A stretch of DNA of 64,000 nucleotides from an uncultured cyanobacterium (GTDB lineage: Bacteria > Cyanobacteriota > Cyanobacteriia > Cyanobacteriales > CAWUOF01). The position numbers and the translations under genes were made by a program. The notes below the pieces were generated by a model. It was not told the origin of the DNA, ran no database searches, and was given only the letters and a program-made list of their open reading frames with translations. This document shows positions 11,661 through 50,007 of this stretch, one piece after another (within the stretch, counting starts at the first letter, position 1; every line of letters starts with the position of its first letter). Location of the stretch: NCBI GenBank assembly GCA_963744145.1, contig CAVUSO010000001.1:6336001-6400000 (forward strand), in the 5' to 3' direction.

Positions 11661-14600
11661 TTATTTATCTTCATCAATAACACTTTTTAAATCTAAAGTC
11701 AATTGTCCAGGTTCTAAAAGCAATTCCTGTTGCACATAAACTACTTTGGCTTTAATCTCATCCATTGCTAACCATAAATTTAATAAGGCTTTTTCTTCAG
11801 GGATGCGTTTACGTTCGTCTCCGATGCGGGGGATAACTTTTAAGGCTATTTCCCAAGCTCGCATAAACCTATCATTGGTGATTAGTTCTGTGGCTTTCAT
11901 AAAACGGCGGATTGGTTCGATGGTTTGTTCTTGTTGATAAATAGCAATGATCGTGTGGAGTCCGTCAATCAGATAATGGGCAGAAAATTCATTGTCTACG
12001 ATCGAGAATGCGTGTTTTTTATAGCGTTGTTCAGGGCTGAGGAATTTACAAGTTCCGCTTTTGATGTCGAGGATTTTGTAACTTTTGCCTAGGTCAGCAA
12101 CATTGAAACCACCTACGGCTAGGGCAAGTTGTCGAGCGTCATCAAAGGGGAATTCGCGGGCGCGGAAAGCATCCCAAGCGAGGAAATACCATTGGCTAAC
12201 AGGGTCAAAACCCATGGTGTCAGTTTGAGCGAGTTTGCGGAAGCGGTAGTTAGCAACAGCTTTGCGAGCTTCAGCAAATGCAACTTCGGGGCGGACTTCG
12301 TTACCTGTACTATCAAGAACTGGCCAGGAGCGGGAAAAGACATTGAGAGCGGGACCAAAGGCACTGAGATAGAGATCGATCCCTTGAATATCATTGTCTT
12401 CAAATTCTGGGGCGCGTTGTTCGACTAGATTGGAGACTTCGGGGCGGAGGTCATCCCACCAGGCTTGTTCGGCGTTGGGGTCGCGTTTGCGGCACACAAG
12501 TAATACTGTACTAGCGACGGAGTTCTTTTGGGCTTGGTGGAGGTTTTGCGGGTTTTCGGTGCTGACTGACCATGATGCGGTGATCTCAAAGCCTGCATTA
12601 ATTAAGGAATATGCTAGGGTATCCCATGCTCCTGATTCTTTGTGATTGAATTGCACAGTCATTACCCCATCTTCTCGTAAGACGCGATGATATTCGGCAA
12701 ATGCCATTGCCATTTTTGCTTCATAATCTTGGTTAGCGAGTTCTTCGGGGGATACTCCCATATTGCGAAAGCGTGAGGGATTGGCTACGGCTTCGCGATC
12801 TTTGTCGGTGAGTTCCATCCAGAAGAGATCGGGGAAGATATCGCCGAGGGTGCGTTTTTGCCAAACATAGAAAAAATCTGATAGTTCAGCGTATTGGATG
12901 GTTGCGTAATAAGGTGGATCTGTGATAATTACATCTACTGAGTTATCAGAAATATGAGAAAGGTTATCAGCAGAAGCGGAGAAAATTTCAAGAGAATTTG
13001 TCCTTGTGGGTCGGGCATCTTGCCCGACATTTCCGATGACATTTCCCCTATCCTCAAACAAATCATTATTTGTTAATAGTTGTTCATTAGTTTCAGCAAT
13101 TGACAGGCTAGAAGCCTGTCCCACAATTTGAGATTGCCATAGGAAAACATAATCTTCAGGGGTTAGAGATAAACTGGCTTTTACAGGATTTTGCCTGATA
13201 TATTCCCAAGTATTAAAAAACTCTCTTTCATCTCGAATAATTCGATCATATCGGCGATCCTGCCAAACAGTACCAATATGATTCATCACCTTTGAAATTT
13301 GTTTAGCTGTATAGCTTTTAATACTGTGTAAAATATTTGCTGATGTCCAATATTCTCCCTCATTTTTTGATAATGGTTCCAACAATAAATGCACATGGTC
13401 AGGCATAACCACTGCACAGTATAACTGATATCTTTGATCATTAAAGAATCGACAAGCATCTAAAACAATTTGTCTAGCTTCAAGTGTTAACTCAATTCTC
13501 TCAATCGTATTGAAAGTAATAAAGTATATAGAACCATTCAGTTCCCAGTGTGGAAGTGTACCCCAATTGCTGTAAGTAATTTTCAAGTTTGGATTTAGAT
13601 ATATTTCATCATCATCATTCCTTGTGGGTCGGGCATCCTGCCCGACATTTCCACCATCATCATTAACAATCAAACTGCCATTAATAACTAAATTATTGTT
13701 ATGAGTAGCTAATTTGTTATGATCATTGGTAATTGACAGGCTAGAAGCCTGTCCCACAAAATTAAGATTAAAAAGTATTCTGTTATCCTCCGTACCTAGC
13801 AAATTACAAAGATTTTGATAATCTGAGGCAAAAGCATCAGCACAGGAATTCCAGAGTTCACCTTTCCCACTAATTTCTGGATAATTCCACATTAAGTTTA
13901 ATGAGTGTTGTGCAGATGCTGTCTTAGAGCCGGCTCTTGAGGAATCCCAATGGGCTAACCTACAATTCGTGTCAGCACAACGATCTAATACTAACCCTAA
14001 ATAAGTGGCGATCGCCTCAACTTTATTCTGATAGTATAATTCAATATTTGCGATCGCCCTCTGGATATCCTCTACTTCTGGATTAGATTTTAATTTGGCG
14101 ATCACTGTTTCTTTTTCTTCTTCACATTCATCCTGAATTAGTGATTTTGCTTCATTGATAATTTCTAAATATGTAACAAGAGTTAAAAGTTGGCGAGAAT
14201 TGAAATAATCTAGGCTTTTTGCTAAACCATAAGCAATACATCTATCTGAAAAACCATCAAATCTTTCTTCTACTGGCAAAATTCCACTTGCTTTTAAATA
14301 ATCTAACTTCTCATTCAAATAAATTACTACTTTATTAATTCCGTCAATATCGATCTGAGTTGGTATTCTAAAATCTAAACTAGCTTTGCCTTTACGATAG
14401 GCTACAGCATACAAATGATGTCTAAAATTACCCGCCAAAGCTTGAGATTTAATTACATCATCTTCGATCACATTGTCGCAATTAGGACATCTACCAACGC
14501 CCCGACCAATAGTAGTTGTTGTATCCGGATCATATTCTCCATCATCAGTTTGAATAGTTGTTCCTTTTCCCTTCTTCCCCTTCACCAATTCAAAATCAAC

Positions 14601-15341
14601 CCGCTTATTCTCAGGGTTAGGAATTGGCTTGACTGCACACCATTTATGTAAATTCTGCTTTTCTGGACGTTTATATAACCACCAATTCGGACTCAAAGGT
14701 ACAACCGATTCACAATTCGGACAAACCACCGTATGTGCCCACAGATAATTCTGTACAGTTTCCCCAGGTAAAGAAGGGAAAAACTCCGCTAATCTTTTCT
14801 CGGCTTCATCACCTACCCACTTCACCCATTGATCAATATCCTGCTGCAAATCCGGTCCAAACTTTAGGGGATATTCCATCGCAGCTTTCATCGTCACAAC
14901 AGCGACAGGATTCAGATCCGATGCTAATACATTAAACCCATATCTTGCTGCTTCAAAGGGAATACTCCCACCCCCCGCAAACGCATCTAAAACTGTAGGT
15001 GTACGAGTTCCCCACAATTTTTCACAATAATCCTGCACCTTTTTAATTCTCAATTTACCAGGAGGTGTTTTATACAACTTAATATCAGGATCTGGTTTCA
15101 AACCTTCTTGTTCTGGGTACAAACCTAACAGATATTTAAACTCCTCCATTGTTACATCCCCAGGTAACAAGGAAGCTAACACACTGGCTCGACTAAAGGA
15201 CAAAGGTTTGCGCGAATACCACCGATGTAAACCCTTAAACGGATTACCCCCATGTTCGTAATATACCTGCTCGTTGAGTAACTTCACGGGCATAATTTTT
15301 TCAATAAAAACTTGAGGACGGTGGGAACTAGAGTTAGTCAT
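11661..15341 (-). CDS. DUF1156-domain DNA (adenine) methyltransferase with an in-frame internal RAYT transposase domain
   Basis: LHRWYSRKPL (DUF1156), LDAFAGGGSIPFEA (motif I), CPNC..CPNC Zn ribbon, ITDPPYY (motif IV); internal MPDHVH / WQDRRYDRIIRDE / YIRQNPVKA. Confidence 0.92.
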   Translation of the reverse strand: MTNSSSHRPQVFIEKIMPVKLLNEQVYYEHGGNPFKGLHRWYSRKPLSFSRASVLASLLPGDVTMEEFKYLLGLYPEQEGLKPDPDIKLYKTPPGKLRIKKVQDYCEKLWGTRTPTVLDAFAGGGSIPFEAARYGFNVLASDLNPVAVVTMKAAMEYPLKFGPDLQQDIDQWVKWVGDEAEKRLAEFFPSLPGETVQNYLWAHTVVCPNCESVVPLSPNWWLYKRPEKQNLHKWCAVKPIPNPENKRVDFELVKGKKGKGTTIQTDDGEYDPDTTTTIGRGVGRCPNCDNVIEDDVIKSQALAGNFRHHLYAVAYRKGKASLDFRIPTQIDIDGINKVVIYLNEKLDYLKASGILPVEERFDGFSDRCIAYGLAKSLDYFNSRQLLTLVTYLEIINEAKSLIQDECEEEKETVIAKLKSNPEVEDIQRAIANIELYYQNKVEAIATYLGLVLDRCADTNCRLAHWDSSRAGSKTASAQHSLNLMWNYPEISGKGELWNSCADAFASDYQNLCNLLGTEDNRILFNLNFVGQASSLSITNDHNKLATHNNNLVINGSLIVNDDGGNVGQDARPTRNDDDEIYLNPNLKITYSNWGTLPHWELNGSIYFITFNTIERIELTLEARQIVLDACRFFNDQRYQLYCAVVMPDHVHLLLEPLSKNEGEYWTSANILHSIKSYTAKQISKVMNHIGTVWQDRRYDRIIRDEREFFNTWEYIRQNPVKASLSLTPEDYVFLWQSQIVGQASSLSIAETNEQLLTNNDLFEDRGNVIGNVGQDARPTRTNSLEIFSASADNLSHISDNSVDVIITDPPYYATIQYAELSDFFYVWQKRTLGDIFPDLFWMELTDKDREAVANPSRFRNMGVSPEELANQDYEAKMAMAFAEYHRVLREDGVMTVQFNHKESGAWDTLAYSLINAGFEITASWSVSTENPQNLHQAQKNSVASTVLLVCRKRDPNAEQAWWDDLRPEVSNLVEQRAPEFEDNDIQGIDLYLSAFGPALNVFSRSWPVLDSTGNEVRPEVAFAEARKAVANYRFRKLAQTDTMGFDPVSQWYFLAWDAFRAREFPFDDARQLALAVGGFNVADLGKSYKILDIKSGTCKFLSPEQRYKKHAFSIVDNEFSAHYLIDGLHTIIAIYQQEQTIEPIRRFMKATELITNDRFMRAWEIALKVIPRIGDERKRIPEEKALLNLWLAMDEIKAKVVYVQQELLLEPGQLTLDLKSVIDEDK
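13006..13124. repeat. REP doublet A (inverted pair of GTGG-hairpin REPs)
   Basis: GTGG-GTCGGGCA-TCT-TGCCCGAC at 13006-13028 and GACAGGCT-AGA-AGCCTGTC-CCAC at 13102-13124. Confidence 0.92.
13624..13757. repeat. REP doublet B
   Basis: GTGG-GTCGGGCA-TCC-TGCCCGAC at 13624-13646 and GACAGGCT-AGA-AGCCTGTC-CCAC at 13735-13757. Confidence 0.92.
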
Positions 15342-15541
15342 AATTAATTTTCGAGTAAGTGAAGTAAAAAGAAATTACCCCTTGACTTTCCTGGGTAATT
15401 GCTATACTATAGCATCATGGGAATCTGTGCCGACCTATAAAGTAAGTTAAATTTAGTAAAATAATAATTTATCCTGATTTTGATCGTCATCTACCAGAAA
15501 ATATCATCAACGATTTGAGCAATCCAACTCCACCTCAAACT

Positions 15542-15798
15542 TCTGAAGAATTAGGCTGGTCTTCGGTTTTTTTTGAATAGATGAACCACCAAGGCACCAA
15601 GGCACTAAGGTTAGGAAGTTTGGTCCGATCGCTTCTTCGTGTCTTGGTGTCTTGGTGGTAAAAATCTCATGACTGTTACCTCTGAAGAATTAGGCTGGTC
15701 TTCTGGTTTTTTTTGAACAGACAGCAGGATGTTTAGCTGATGAGCTATTGGTGCGATATCCCCAAGGTGAATATGAGATCAGAGAGGAAATCGAATGA
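15542..15798 (+). pseudogene. Remnant of a small putative antitoxin-like gene with a 36-bp duplication around an inverted repeat
   Basis: Direct repeats at 15542-15577 and 15681-15717; broken peptide EELGWSSGFF/EQTAGCLADELLVRYPQGEYEIREEIE. Confidence 0.5.
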
Positions 15799-15817: not shown

Positions 15818-15958
15818 TTGATGAAGTACAGTAAGATTGTGGGACAGGCATCTTGCCTGTCAGTCAGTTAAAGTCGATTGTGATTGATCTGTGTTGGTTG
15901 GGCGGGTTTATGATGGTGATCGGTTTGTCACAAAATTAATTGGTGAACCCGCCCCTAC
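15818..15958 (+). repeat. Composite REP/MITE-like repeat, copy 2, with an intact GTGG REP at 15839-15861
   Basis: GTGG-GACAGGCA-TCT-TGCCTGTC plus GGGCGGGTTT...AACCCGCCCCTAC. Confidence 0.87.
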
Positions 15959-17895: not shown

Positions 17896-17972
<77 letters not shown>

Positions 17973-49908: not shown

Positions 49909-49984
49909 TCAGCATTTGATTAGACCAGAAAGCTAAAATAACTAAAATAGACCAGATGTCTGTCCCCCAAAAGTCTTTTTTGTT

Positions 49985-50007
49985 GTGGGACGGGCATCTT
50001 GCCCGTC
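49985..50007 (+). repeat. Intergenic GTGG-hairpin REP
   Basis: GTGG-GACGGGCA-TCT-TGCCCGTC. Confidence 0.85.

Follow-up and report, generated by a model that had tools for sequence, protein, structure and literature searches.

Among the described systems closest to the locus analysed here is the E. coli REPtron, whose nuclease TnpAREP (4ER8) is presented as a monomer in the consulted text of PMC3479197, from which the roles of its catalytic residues were also taken. An assay of Mn2+-dependent binding, cleavage and strand transfer on single-stranded REP is described in the consulted part of PMC8266576, and the GT[AG]G-reading positions of RAYT subclass 2.7 have been set out (Quentin 2018, PMC6006769). 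Palindromic REPs and Rickettsia RPEs have also been found in-frame in ORFs, where they are tolerated as extra peptide, often in replication/repair genes and tRNA synthetases (Di Nocera et al. 2013, excerpts of PMC3733652).

In the window, the whole 64-kb stretch of DNA that was analysed, a RAYT and its REPs lie in the reading frame of a DNA methylase gene (see table). The RAYT shares with E. coli TnpAREP the HUH motif, the single catalytic tyrosine and the predicted fold, its DHVH, WQ and YIRQNP motifs correspond to the subclass 2.7 row of Table 1 in PMC6006769, and, as in REPtrons, REP hairpins with a GT[AG]G foot stand on either side and cognate REPs occur elsewhere in the window. Unlike REPtrons, however, it has no start or stop, it is situated within the reading frame of another protein, and its REPs are translated. 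As in the REP/RPE insertions, both REPINs of the cassette are open in the host frame in the same phase, and two REPIN-only alleles (P0091 and P0117) are of that kind; here, in contrast, the enzyme is included, whereas the consulted excerpts of PMC3733652 describe only short repeats within genes. The IS200/IS605 elements belong to the same superfamily and fold (PDB fold matches, ranks 2-30) and likewise have hairpins near both ends, the flanking units in the window being direct repeats, but the cassette has no gene of its own and gives no sign of being multi-copy, with one RAYT in the 64 kb. Homing-endonuclease inteins are similar in being in-frame nuclease-coding inserts without start or stop that recur at one position in orthologs of conserved, essential proteins and are patchily present among close alleles; the nuclease here is instead of the HUH/Y1 type, and any homing would be hypothetical. 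An earlier sequence-only reading had called the insert intein-like in effect but without splicing motifs, in agreement with the absence of any intein or Hint splicing family among the Pfam matches of the host protein at E <= 0.01; because no Hint/splicing domain was detected, the mature protein should retain the insert. Within the family of the host methylase, P0383 carries a true intein, with matches to Intein_splicing and LAGLIDADG_3. From the sequence, we consider that the cassette is probably a gene-resident REPtron whose translation product forms one domain of the host protein.

Table. Coordinates of the host ORF, the cassette and the related REPs in the window
Feature	Position	Strand	Remarks
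Host ORF (P0001)	11661..15341	minus	ATG-started, 1226 aa, 0 internal stops
DUF1156 N-terminal domain	15159..15293	minus	residues 17-61; Pfam PF06634, 31.8 bits, gathering score 24
SAM-binding motif I FAGGGS	14964..14981	minus	residues 121-126; invariant in 15 aligned homologs
Putative zinc ribbon	14478..14723	minus	CPNC 207-210 and CPNC 285-288; four Cys invariant in 15 homologs
Left REPIN	13620..13759	minus	REP 13735-13759 and inverted REP 13622-13646
In-frame TTG, codon 586	13584..13586	minus	ten codons before LPHW; possible, unsupported internal start
RAYT core (TnpAREP-type HUH/Y1 nuclease)	13128..13559	minus	residues 595-738
HUH motif H649-V650-H651	13389..13397	minus	aligns with H59-M60-H61 of E. 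coli TnpAREP
Catalytic tyrosine Y714 in WEYIRQNPVKA	13200..13202	minus	aligns with Y115 of 4ER8
Right REPIN	13002..13126	minus	REP 13102-13126 and inverted REP 13004-13028
Catalytic motif IV DPPY	12909..12920	minus	residues 808-811; invariant in 15 aligned homologs
Solitary intergenic REP, cassette family	15837..15861	plus	2 mismatches to the cassette REP
Solitary intergenic REP, cassette family	49983..50007	plus	from repeat search of the 64-kb window

The host methylase

The sequence-only reading described one uninterrupted 1226-codon ORF without stating its strand; the ORF was confirmed and lies on the minus strand, and the plus strand over the same interval has stops throughout. By homology, the encoded protein P0001 is a DUF1156-family, HmaB-like N6-adenine DNA methyltransferase, and the DUF1156 domain, FAGGG motif I, zinc-ribbon cysteines and DPPY motif named in that reading could all be verified. 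The paired CPNC motifs would presumably bind zinc. Pfam MethyltransfD12 matched residues 114-164 (25.1, cut-off 22), and N6_N4_Mtase matched residues 802-956 with 24.5 bits, below its cut-off of 26.7. The best PADLOC match was HmaB (251 bits), and the order of DUF1156 at the N-terminus, motif I, a variable middle and then DPPY is that of HmaB/DUF1156 proteins in the consulted parts of PMC11232893 and PMC12839542. P0001 differs from the Hma and BREX-related systems in being solitary and in scoring 218 bits against the cut-off of 1000 of the NCBIfam equivalog 'anti-phage-associated DUF1156'. A second protein, P0002, is identical to P0001 at 296 of the first 300 residues and about 97% identical beyond residue 800, with a different middle, and on this comparison P0001 is a mosaic of P0002.

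This affiliation bears on one alternative, also raised in the sequence-only reading, that the protein is a domesticated methylase-nuclease chimera, in which a methylase of the defence type would use the HUH domain as its effector or for targeting, for instance by recognising or nicking hairpins on ssDNA in a way coupled to methylation or restriction, and the REP-like flanks would be leftovers of its recruitment. We regard this as unlikely, and as less likely than a gene-resident REPtron. The HmaB-like family argues for the chimera, HmaB being part of a defence system according to the consulted text of PMC11232893, and so do the conserved catalytic residues. Nevertheless, the genes adjoining P0001 (CheW, PBP2, CheR-TPR, DUF697 GTPase and asparaginase II) include no HmaA helicase, HmaC/DUF499 ATPase or other defence gene, PADLOC gave no relevant match on the two adjoining ORFs, and a literature search for an HUH-methylase fusion returned no paper. 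Besides, the REP hairpins that flank the RAYT on either side have kept their DNA structure, for which a protein-domain fusion would have no need.

The RAYT domain between two REPINs

The middle of P0001 matches the NCBIfam profile REP_Tyr_transpos (NF047646) with 95.3 bits against a cut-off of 80, over model positions 4-145 of 146, and the IS200 profile NF033573 with 16.8 bits against a cut-off of 55. Two Pfam profiles, Y1_Tnp and DUF1156, had been proposed as checks on the fusion, of which DUF1156 clears its threshold and Y1_Tnp falls just short (22.6, cut-off 23). The assignment of its motifs to the HUH and catalytic-tyrosine centres of TnpA-REP/RAYT was borne out by NF047646 and by alignment with 4ER8 (E 2e-4), the motifs being LPHW (596-599), YFITF (606-610), MPDHVHLL (646-653), WQDRRYDRIIRDE (693-705) and YIRQNPVKA (714-722). 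Y714 is invariant in an alignment of 26 RAYTs and H649/H651 are invariant or nearly so, N718 aligns with N119 of 4ER8, and W693, Q694, D699, R700 and R703 take the GT[AG]G-reading positions of subclass 2.7. As far as alignment tells, the domain is an embedded RAYT with intact catalytic and REP-reading residues. Structure prediction, as suggested earlier, gave a confident TnpAREP fold (pLDDT 80-98 across residues 581-740) between two linkers, with 4er8_A as the best PDB fold match (E 2.3e-8, TM 0.70, rmsd 2.5 A). The REPIN-encoded linkers (residues 527-578 and 742-794) are predicted to be disordered, with pLDDT < 50 and the left REPIN without secondary structure.

Two REP doublets that are direct copies of each other bracket the RAYT and form a REPIN-RAYT-REPIN cassette at 13002-13759, residues 528-780. 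The interval and the placement of a whole REP-flanked RAYT in the methylase frame agree with the sequence-only reading, except that the flanks are REPINs and not single REPs, and that DPPY begins 28 residues further on instead of about 25. The REPs at 13735-13759 and 13102-13126 have a TTGTGGG foot, an 8-bp stem and a 3-nt loop, and 100 shuffles contained no REP matches. Both REPINs are translated as VGQASSLS...NVGQDARPTR (residues 528-574 on the left, 739-780 on the right), the right one repeating the left in identical codon phase at spacings of 633 and 618 nt, both multiples of three, and each shows a double-hairpin fold (z -5.7 left, -5.4 right). REPs of the cassette family in the window are the four flanking the RAYT and the two outside the gene.

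The insert contains no stop in the frame used and 9-35 in each other frame, with one of six frames open; from base composition, the probability of no stop across the 108 non-RAYT codons is about 7e-4. No Met codon occurs from residue 528 to LPHW and no stop follows the RAYT, that is, the embedded RAYT lacks the start and stop of its own that mark a free-standing gene, while at the 22 closest free-standing RAYT loci the ORF ends within 20 codons past the RAYT. The sequence-only reading had made the same two observations on start and stop but missed the in-frame TTG at codon 586. The TTG raises the possibility of a separate product, with RAYT made apart from the full fusion either by initiation at this codon, yielding RAYT plus the methylase C-lobe, or by proteolysis in the disordered REPIN linkers. 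It is consistent with such a product that free-standing relatives have their N-termini aligned with the TTG, that five of the seven RAYT-bearing proteins at this site (site A) have Leu at its column, and that both linkers have low pLDDT. However, P0008 and P0010 carry Ile at that column, neither Leu nor Met, no Shine-Dalgarno-like sequence was seen by eye upstream of the TTG, and translation alone could not release a free RAYT because no stop follows it; we judge a separate product improbable.

Alternative alleles at the methylase site

In relatives of the methylase, a short linker connects the variable middle region with the DPPY catalytic lobe, and the site is occupied by the RAYT cassette, by one or two REPINs without RAYT, by a DUF559 nuclease, or by a plain 17-residue linker, the last being the insert-free allele that ortholog alignment had been expected to reveal. 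Among 15 aligned methylases, seven bear RAYT at site A and two bear DUF559 (P0028 and P0043). P0091 has two in-frame REPINs exactly at the position of the REPIN-RAYT-REPIN of P0008, the flanks of the two proteins sharing 96% identity over 457 aa, P0117 has one REPIN at the site, and P0003 and P0006 have extra REPINs at a second site. The REPIN-only and linker-only alleles among near-identical methylases speak against the chimera, to which the presence of a second nuclease, DUF559, at the same site lends support; DUF559 is, however, equally promiscuous in housekeeping proteins.

In trees of 120 methylases, the seven RAYT-bearing rows require 6-7 changes, and the nearest neighbour of every one is RAYT-less, at 90-97% identity. 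A single origin of the site-A RAYTs was not rejected (AU p = 0.108), and thus the patchy distribution could be due to loss and recombination without movement. Among the seven site-A proteins, identity is 59-89% in the RAYT core and 62-76% in the methylase N part, and is at most 30% in the right linker in 20 of 21 pairs. The methylase, in our interpretation, may remain active, because the cassette occupies an inter-domain linker.

Gene-resident RAYTs in other host proteins

Members of the same RAYT family occur in-frame and REP-flanked within ValRS, IleRS, AlaRS, ThrRS, PurH, Ham1, PriA, RecG and others, with shikimate kinase and DnaK as further hosts, so that the search for additional in-frame RAYT+REP fusions proposed earlier was productive. 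The family is borne by 156 long proteins; among the 120 of these that were listed, the hosts include 34 DUF1156 proteins, 25 class-I aaRS, 11 AlaRS, 11 PriA, 9 PurH and 6 RecG. Of the best 150 cluster representatives, 46 exceed 300 aa, and among 80 genome loci there are 12 in which 100 or more open codons border the RAYT on each side. The host family was identified for 17 of 20 ORFs and 30 of 40 long representatives. REPs flanked the RAYT within the host ORF at all five loci inspected, and a REP was common to both RAYT flanks at 17 of 19. An artefact of assembly or gene calling, conceivable where repeated REPs mislead assemblers, is extremely improbable given that the insert is read in the same frame as the two halves of the host protein, that independent records from different sources have identical architecture, and that at embedded loci elsewhere the host Pfam domains are split by the insert into two stretches.

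The presence of RAYT and REPs in unrelated housekeeping genes, together with presence, absence and REPIN-only alleles, sustains the idea of the sequence-only reading that a transposase persists in the host frame, and it argues against the chimera, since in PurH, Ham1, aaRSs, shikimate kinase and DnaK a role for a DNA nuclease is not evident. The main support of the chimera is that, in the closest relatives, DNA methylases serve as hosts far more often than any other protein: of the 81 closest RAYT domains, 52 are not short and 47 of these are in DNA methylases, a proportion not to be expected of a passenger that is purely opportunistic. Methylase-hosted RAYTs occupy at least four different sites (A to E) as well as type IIG enzymes, and the alternation with DUF559 at the methylase site could reflect selection for a nuclease module.

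As a gene-resident REPtron, the RAYT would have no gene of its own and would be translated as an internal domain, with promoter and start codon provided by the host gene. It may still bind, and cut or rejoin, GTGG-foot REP hairpins on ssDNA as a monomeric HUH nuclease, one copy being plausible as an enzyme by analogy with the monomeric TnpAREP, and, by acting on such hairpins, it could service the REP/REPIN population of the genome. The host gene would be a safe haven, in that a gene needed by the cell would tolerate no deletions other than those that keep the frame. Recombination between the direct REPIN repeats could remove the cassette or leave REPINs alone, and homologous recombination could carry it together with the variable middle segment between methylase alleles. 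Further points count against this REPtron reading. Transposition of REPtrons as units reportedly does not occur, according to the consulted part of PMC3333891, a free-standing cognate RAYT may lie in the genome beyond the 64 kb analysed, and locus L020, a DUF1156+RAYT relative, is frame-broken, as could be expected of an inert passenger.

We tentatively suggest that RAYT REPtrons, perhaps with DUF559, may form a further gene-resident class beside self-splicing introns and inteins. Such a class would do without splicing, its catalytically intact nuclease domains residing in essential or addictive host proteins (aaRSs, PurH, PriA, RecG, Ham1, defence methylases), borrowing host expression signals and being shielded from deletion by the importance of the host gene, with turnover at fixed sites among alleles that could be homing-like or recombination-driven and with maintenance of the REP/REPIN population. 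The nesting of RAYTs in essential genes of many bacteria, for which a literature search found no description of RAYTs nested in-frame in host genes, suggests a little-noticed lifestyle of mobile enzymes within host proteins.

That the cassette is instead an inert passenger, a recently acquired in-frame insertion tolerated in a permissive linker with its RAYT inactive in the fusion, has a low probability. The predicted disorder of the linkers, a site that accepts very different inserts, the lower GC of the RAYT core (34%, against 39% and 45% in the flanks), and P0002, apparently of the same genome and perhaps able to supply methylase function, would all fit it. However, the RAYT core is conserved like the host enzyme and the linkers are not, and 142 of the 143 embedded copies retain the H-H-Y triad, compared with 156 of the 161 short ones. 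Omega of the RAYT was 0.12-0.48 in the same-site pairs that yielded a value, with dS saturated in all pairs, 5 of 14 pairs giving no RAYT value and the site-A methylases not among them. In same-site pairs of PurH and Ham1 (59-75% host identity) and of ThrRS (78%), the RAYT is still intact.

The methylase frame and its REP-flanked RAYT

The 1226-codon run described by the sequence-only reading as uninterrupted is indeed a single ATG-started ORF, with the minus strand as coding strand, while the plus strand across the same interval is closed and stop-rich on translation. Judged by profile matches and conserved motifs, both ends of its product, P0001, are those of a DUF1156-family N6-adenine DNA methylase: the proposed N-terminal DUF1156 and FAGGG motif and C-terminal DPPY were recovered, and FAGGGS, both CPNC pairs and DPPY are invariant across 15 aligned homologs. 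The top PADLOC match was HmaB, the Hma system's DUF1156 methylase (PMC11232893, available text), and the NCBIfam anti-phage DUF1156 equivalog was far from reached (218 bits; cut-off 1000). The surrounding genes are of housekeeping type (CheW, PBP2, CheR-TPR, DUF697 GTPase, asparaginase II), and the methylase is therefore solitary in this location. The insert-free methylase found no match as a PDB sequence query, and a promoter and terminator scan gave nothing decisive. The 960 bp of intergenic DNA that precede the methylase gene contain a 36-nt direct repeat, with a T run at its end, together with a 25-nt inverted repeat. Rfam returned only tRNA over the window, and a tRNA-Met gene lies between the DUF697 GTPase and asparaginase genes.

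Features of the methylase gene, its insert and their surroundings (window positions; residues of P0001)
Feature	Window position	Residues	Remark
Host ORF (P0001)	11661-15341 (-)		1226 codons
DUF1156		17-61	Pfam match
Motif I FAGGGS		121-126	under D12-class match
CPNC pairs		207-210, 285-288	
Middle region	about 13840-14440	301-500	48-88% identity to P0002 per 50-residue block
Insert (cassette)	13002-13759	528-780	0 stops in used frame, 9-35 in each of the other five
Left linker		527-578	pLDDT below 50, without secondary structure
RAYT core, model		581-740	pLDDT 80-98
RAYT core, composition	13128-13559		GC 34.0%, GC3 24%
REP_Tyr_transpos		598-733	NCBIfam, 95.3 bits (cut-off 80), model positions 4-145 of 146
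Right linker		742-794	pLDDT below 50, without secondary structure
DPPY		808-811	sub-threshold N6_N4_Mtase match, 802-956
First REP of each doublet	13735-13759, 13102-13126		TTGTGGG foot, 8-bp stem, 3-nt loop
Inverted REP of each doublet	13622-13646, 13004-13028		ends CCCACAA, 60-80 nt downstream of first REP
Single intergenic REPs, same family	15837-15861, 49983-50007		
36-nt direct repeat	15539-15574, 15678-15713		
25-nt inverted repeat	within 15585-15659		
tRNA-Met (CAT)	17896-17972 (-)		

Between these methylase parts lies a REP-associated tyrosine transposase (RAYT). The expected Pfam match to Y1_Tnp fell slightly short of its cut-off (22.6 against 23), whereas DUF1156 was matched and the REP_Tyr_transpos profile scored above threshold. 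A PDB sequence search with the RAYT part led to E. coli TnpAREP 4ER8 (E 2e-4), and the proposed HUH and catalytic-tyrosine motifs are upheld by this alignment, which pairs H649 and H651 with H59 and H61, Y714 with the catalytic Y115 and N718 with the metal ligand N119 (roles in PMC3479197, available text). The tyrosine of RRYDR, at whose position P0003 and P0004 carry H or F, was rejected as the catalytic residue, since the 4ER8 alignment points to the invariant tyrosine of WEYIRQNP. W693, Q694, D699, R700 and R703 align on W94, Q95, E100, H101 and R104, positions named for GTAG recognition, where subclass 2.7 is noted to have D in place of E and R in place of H (Quentin et al., PMC6006769); DHVH, WQ and YIRQNP likewise reproduce the subclass 2.7 row in Table 1 of that paper, as far as its text was available. 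In an AlphaFold2 model of residues 441-900 only (460 residues, 48 aligned sequences), the confidently predicted core has the TnpAREP fold and is flanked by low-confidence linkers; 4er8_A was the closest PDB fold (E 2.3e-8, target TM 0.70, rmsd 2.5 A over 143 columns), and IS200/IS605 transposases ranked after it. The insert thus shares with TnpAREP the positions of the HUH, catalytic tyrosine and metal ligand as well as the predicted fold, and since TnpAREP is active as a monomer (PMC3479197), a single embedded copy is plausible as an enzyme. The RAYT core is richer in AT than either methylase part (N part GC 38.7%, GC3 30%; C part 44.9%, 41%). No match to the RAYT domain was found by tblastn in the plasmid collection.

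The predicted REP flanks are present on both sides, each flank being a REP doublet rather than a lone REP. On the coding strand, two direct copies of the doublet bracket the RAYT core, and each consists of two hairpins closed by foot-foot pairing (z = -5.7 and -5.4; 0 of 200 shuffles fold as well), which is the REPIN form. No second RAYT occurs in the 64-kb window. Both REPINs share one codon phase, and the probability, from base composition, that the 108 non-RAYT codons would hold no stop is about 7e-4. As had been claimed, the stretch from residue 528 to LPHW lacks a Met codon and the RAYT is not followed by a stop, although an in-frame TTG (codon 586) is present at the start position of free-standing relatives. 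The anatomy is that of a whole REPtron, a RAYT with its REPs, sitting in a permissive linker between domains with the frame open throughout, from which a fusion protein would be made.

Alleles and histories at the methylase site

Most of the best 120 methylase homologs are 910-990 aa long, with a 17-residue linker between the middle region and the DPPY lobe, and the RAYT sits at exactly this linker (site A) in six further proteins (P0003, P0004, P0005, P0006, P0008 and P0010), the REP-derived peptides of the RAYT-bearing site-A relatives being of three types. Alignment to DUF1156 orthologs yielded the sought insert-free alleles, which have the plain linker, and two further proteins have REPINs but no RAYT there. 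In P0091 a tandem pair of REPINs takes the place of the REPIN-RAYT-REPIN of P0008, the following 457 residues being 96% identical, and P0117 has a single REPIN. These mirror E. coli strains in which tnpAREP was lost by precise deletion and the flanking BIMEs were kept (PMC3333891, available text). In P0028 and P0043 the RAYT site is occupied by a DUF559 (Vsr-like) nuclease domain (columns ~700-1000 of the 15-homolog alignment). Such alternation of a second nuclease at the same site speaks for a less likely but live alternative, in which P0001 would be a methylase-nuclease chimera.

In trees of the 120 methylases built from the N-terminal 330 or C-terminal 445 residues, in which the REPIN-only P0091 was labelled as having no RAYT, 6 or 7 changes are required to account for the seven rows with a RAYT, and the nearest neighbor of every such row, at 90-97% identity, lacks one. 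Between P0003 and P0006, identity is 96% over the C-terminal lobe and falls to 62% over the RAYT core, and their linkers are unrelated. The trees and these identities indicate that the cassette and its host gene have different histories; a single clade of site-A RAYTs, as expected from one origin, was neither rejected nor established by the AU test (p = 0.108). P0001 and P0002, the latter probably a paralog in the same genome, are identical at 296 of their first 300 residues and about 97% identical after residue 800, and diverge between. Codons 301-500 are probably the target-recognition part, and the two proteins may therefore methylate different motifs. Homologous recombination that swaps this middle segment is a plausible vehicle for the cassette.

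P0003 (residues ~268-305) and P0006 (~282-305) each have one more in-frame REPIN at a second methylase site, and in both it is of the type of the protein's own cassette. This match would fit local action of the embedded RAYT, or merely reflect the REP family of that genome.

Pairwise identities among the seven site-A proteins are 59-89% in the RAYT core, 62-76% in the methylase N part and 77-96% in the C part, compared with at most 20% in 16 of 21 pairs for the left linker and at most 30% in 20 of 21 for the right. Because core identity is near that of the methylase and linker identity is low, the RAYT has been kept as a protein and the linkers have not.

The same RAYT family inside unrelated enzymes

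The search for other in-frame RAYT and REP fusions was productive. Among proteins of 674-2146 aa, the RAYT part gave 156 matches; by precomputed Pfam columns, the 120 listed included 34 DUF1156 methylases, 25 class-I aaRS, 11 AlaRS, 11 PriA, 9 PurH and 6 RecG, besides DnaK, SerA, type IIG methylases and others. Among 1.84 billion cluster representatives there were 8803 matches at E <= 1e-3, and 46 of the best 150 were longer than 300 aa with an internal RAYT. A genome scan with an alignment of seven RAYTs retained 80 loci, all outside the window's own genome. The closest 22, nearly all cyanobacterial by title, are free-standing RAYTs ending at most 20 codons after the domain, and those of the four loci inspected all lie within intergenic REP arrays; in 12 of the 80 loci, at least 100 open codons stand on each side of the RAYT. 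A Pfam-named host was assigned to 17 of 20 long ORFs from these loci (PurH in five, Ham1/RdgB in three, ThrRS and IleRS in two each, and ValRS, LeuRS, Archease, ThiD2-ThiE and DUF1156 in one each) and to 30 of 40 long representatives, which add shikimate kinase, biotin/lipoate ligase, a LOG-family protein and a class-I methyltransferase. In the long ORFs of the genome scan, the RAYT splits the host Pfam domain, and hosts of one family are interrupted at the same profile position. Inverted REPs with GT[AG]G feet flank the RAYT inside the host ORF in all five loci inspected, and an exact REP of at least 14 nt recurs on either side of the RAYT in 17 of the 19 loci that are embedded or one-sided and in 32 of the 55 free-standing loci; the flanks of six loci were too short for this count.

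The H-H-Y triad is retained in 142 of 143 embedded, 43 of 44 one-sided and 156 of 161 short domains. In same-site pairs from PurH, Ham1 and ThrRS (host identity 59-78%; the two IleRS loci differ in insertion site), RAYT omega was 0.12-0.48 where computable, 5 of 14 pairs giving no value for the RAYT part; as dS was saturated throughout (1.0-2.9), this is read solely as dN well below dS. In a tree of 336 RAYT domains, the free or embedded label changes at least 18 times on well-supported branches. In a tree of 81 closer domains, the RAYT of P0001 belongs to a cyanobacterial clade of 42 rows (26 short free-standing, 12 site-A, 1 site-D, 2 type IIG and 1 long unlabelled, L022), and a second clade of 34 rows consists mostly of DUF1156 proteins in which the RAYT is placed at other sites. 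Mapped onto P0002 by BLAST, the RAYT positions in DUF1156 methylases number four or more. The main fact in favor of a chimera is found here, in that DNA methylases host 47 of the 52 non-short rows among these 81 domains. Two side observations concern individual loci. In a Methylomirabilota MAG (L020, 5081-7487), a gene combining DUF1156 and RAYT shifts frame in the REP region after the RAYT, leaving two overlapping ORFs; either this copy has decayed or the shift is a sequencing error. A free-standing cyanobacterial RAYT carries a REP copy inside its own ORF (L016, 6239-6263); REPs within tnpAREP itself are known from subclass 2.4 (PMC6006769, available text).

The DUF559 domain itself is not confined to methylases, which weighs against reading its presence at site A as a sign of chimeric function. 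It is found inside Ile/Leu/ValRS, ThrRS, PriA, UvrA, MiaB, SufBD, the CCA-adding enzyme, photolyase, MetH and many methylases (P0382-P0499), being internal in 108 of 120 proteins, and DUF559 may represent a second such family of nuclease passengers carried in frame. A true intein also occurs in the same methylase family, which again counts against a chimera: the DUF1156 methylase P0383 holds a DUF559 domain and a LAGLIDADG intein (residues 551-653 and 773-1167). The range of DUF559 hosts and this intein suggest that the DUF1156 gene family and site simply collect in-frame passengers. Given that the same RAYT family, with its REPs, sits in enzymes unrelated to DNA methylation, that the catalytic residues are retained in unrelated hosts, and that RAYT, REPIN-only and empty alleles coexist among near-identical methylase genes, the evidence on balance favors an element that resides in a gene and is translated as one domain of the host protein. 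The embedded RAYT of such an element would act on the REPs of the genome, and an important host gene would shield the cassette from imprecise deletion.

Implications for the search and annotation of RAYTs

In the accepted view, a RAYT is a domesticated transposase that stands free and in a single copy, and REPs are extragenic. The occurrence of a RAYT without a gene of its own, in a methylase and in essential enzymes of several phyla, shifts where RAYTs should be sought, and embedding gives a concrete reason why they could have persisted by vertical descent for so long. RAYTs, REPtrons and REPINs are already known, as are REPs inserted in-frame in ORFs (PMC3733652), and an earlier survey dropped long proteins as fusions or errors (PMC6006769), which leaves these as new places to search. 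Literature searches and the available text of PMC6006769, PMC3733652, PMC5581495, PMC2817692, PMC3333891, PMC3479197 and PMC12839542 gave no account of a RAYT lying in frame within host genes.

The embedded copies also provide a natural test of whether an HUH nuclease functions when placed inside another protein, a point of interest given the use of HUH tags for protein-DNA conjugation, and they make testable the question of whether the embedded enzyme is the mobiliser of its genome's REPINs. Automatic annotation in public records already reads 'adenine-specific DNA methylase/REP element-mobilizing transposase RayT'. There is an annotation hazard as well, with the embedded domain hiding host function: whole ValRS or methylase proteins (P0135, P0149 and P0159) are publicly named 'REP-associated tyrosine transposase'.
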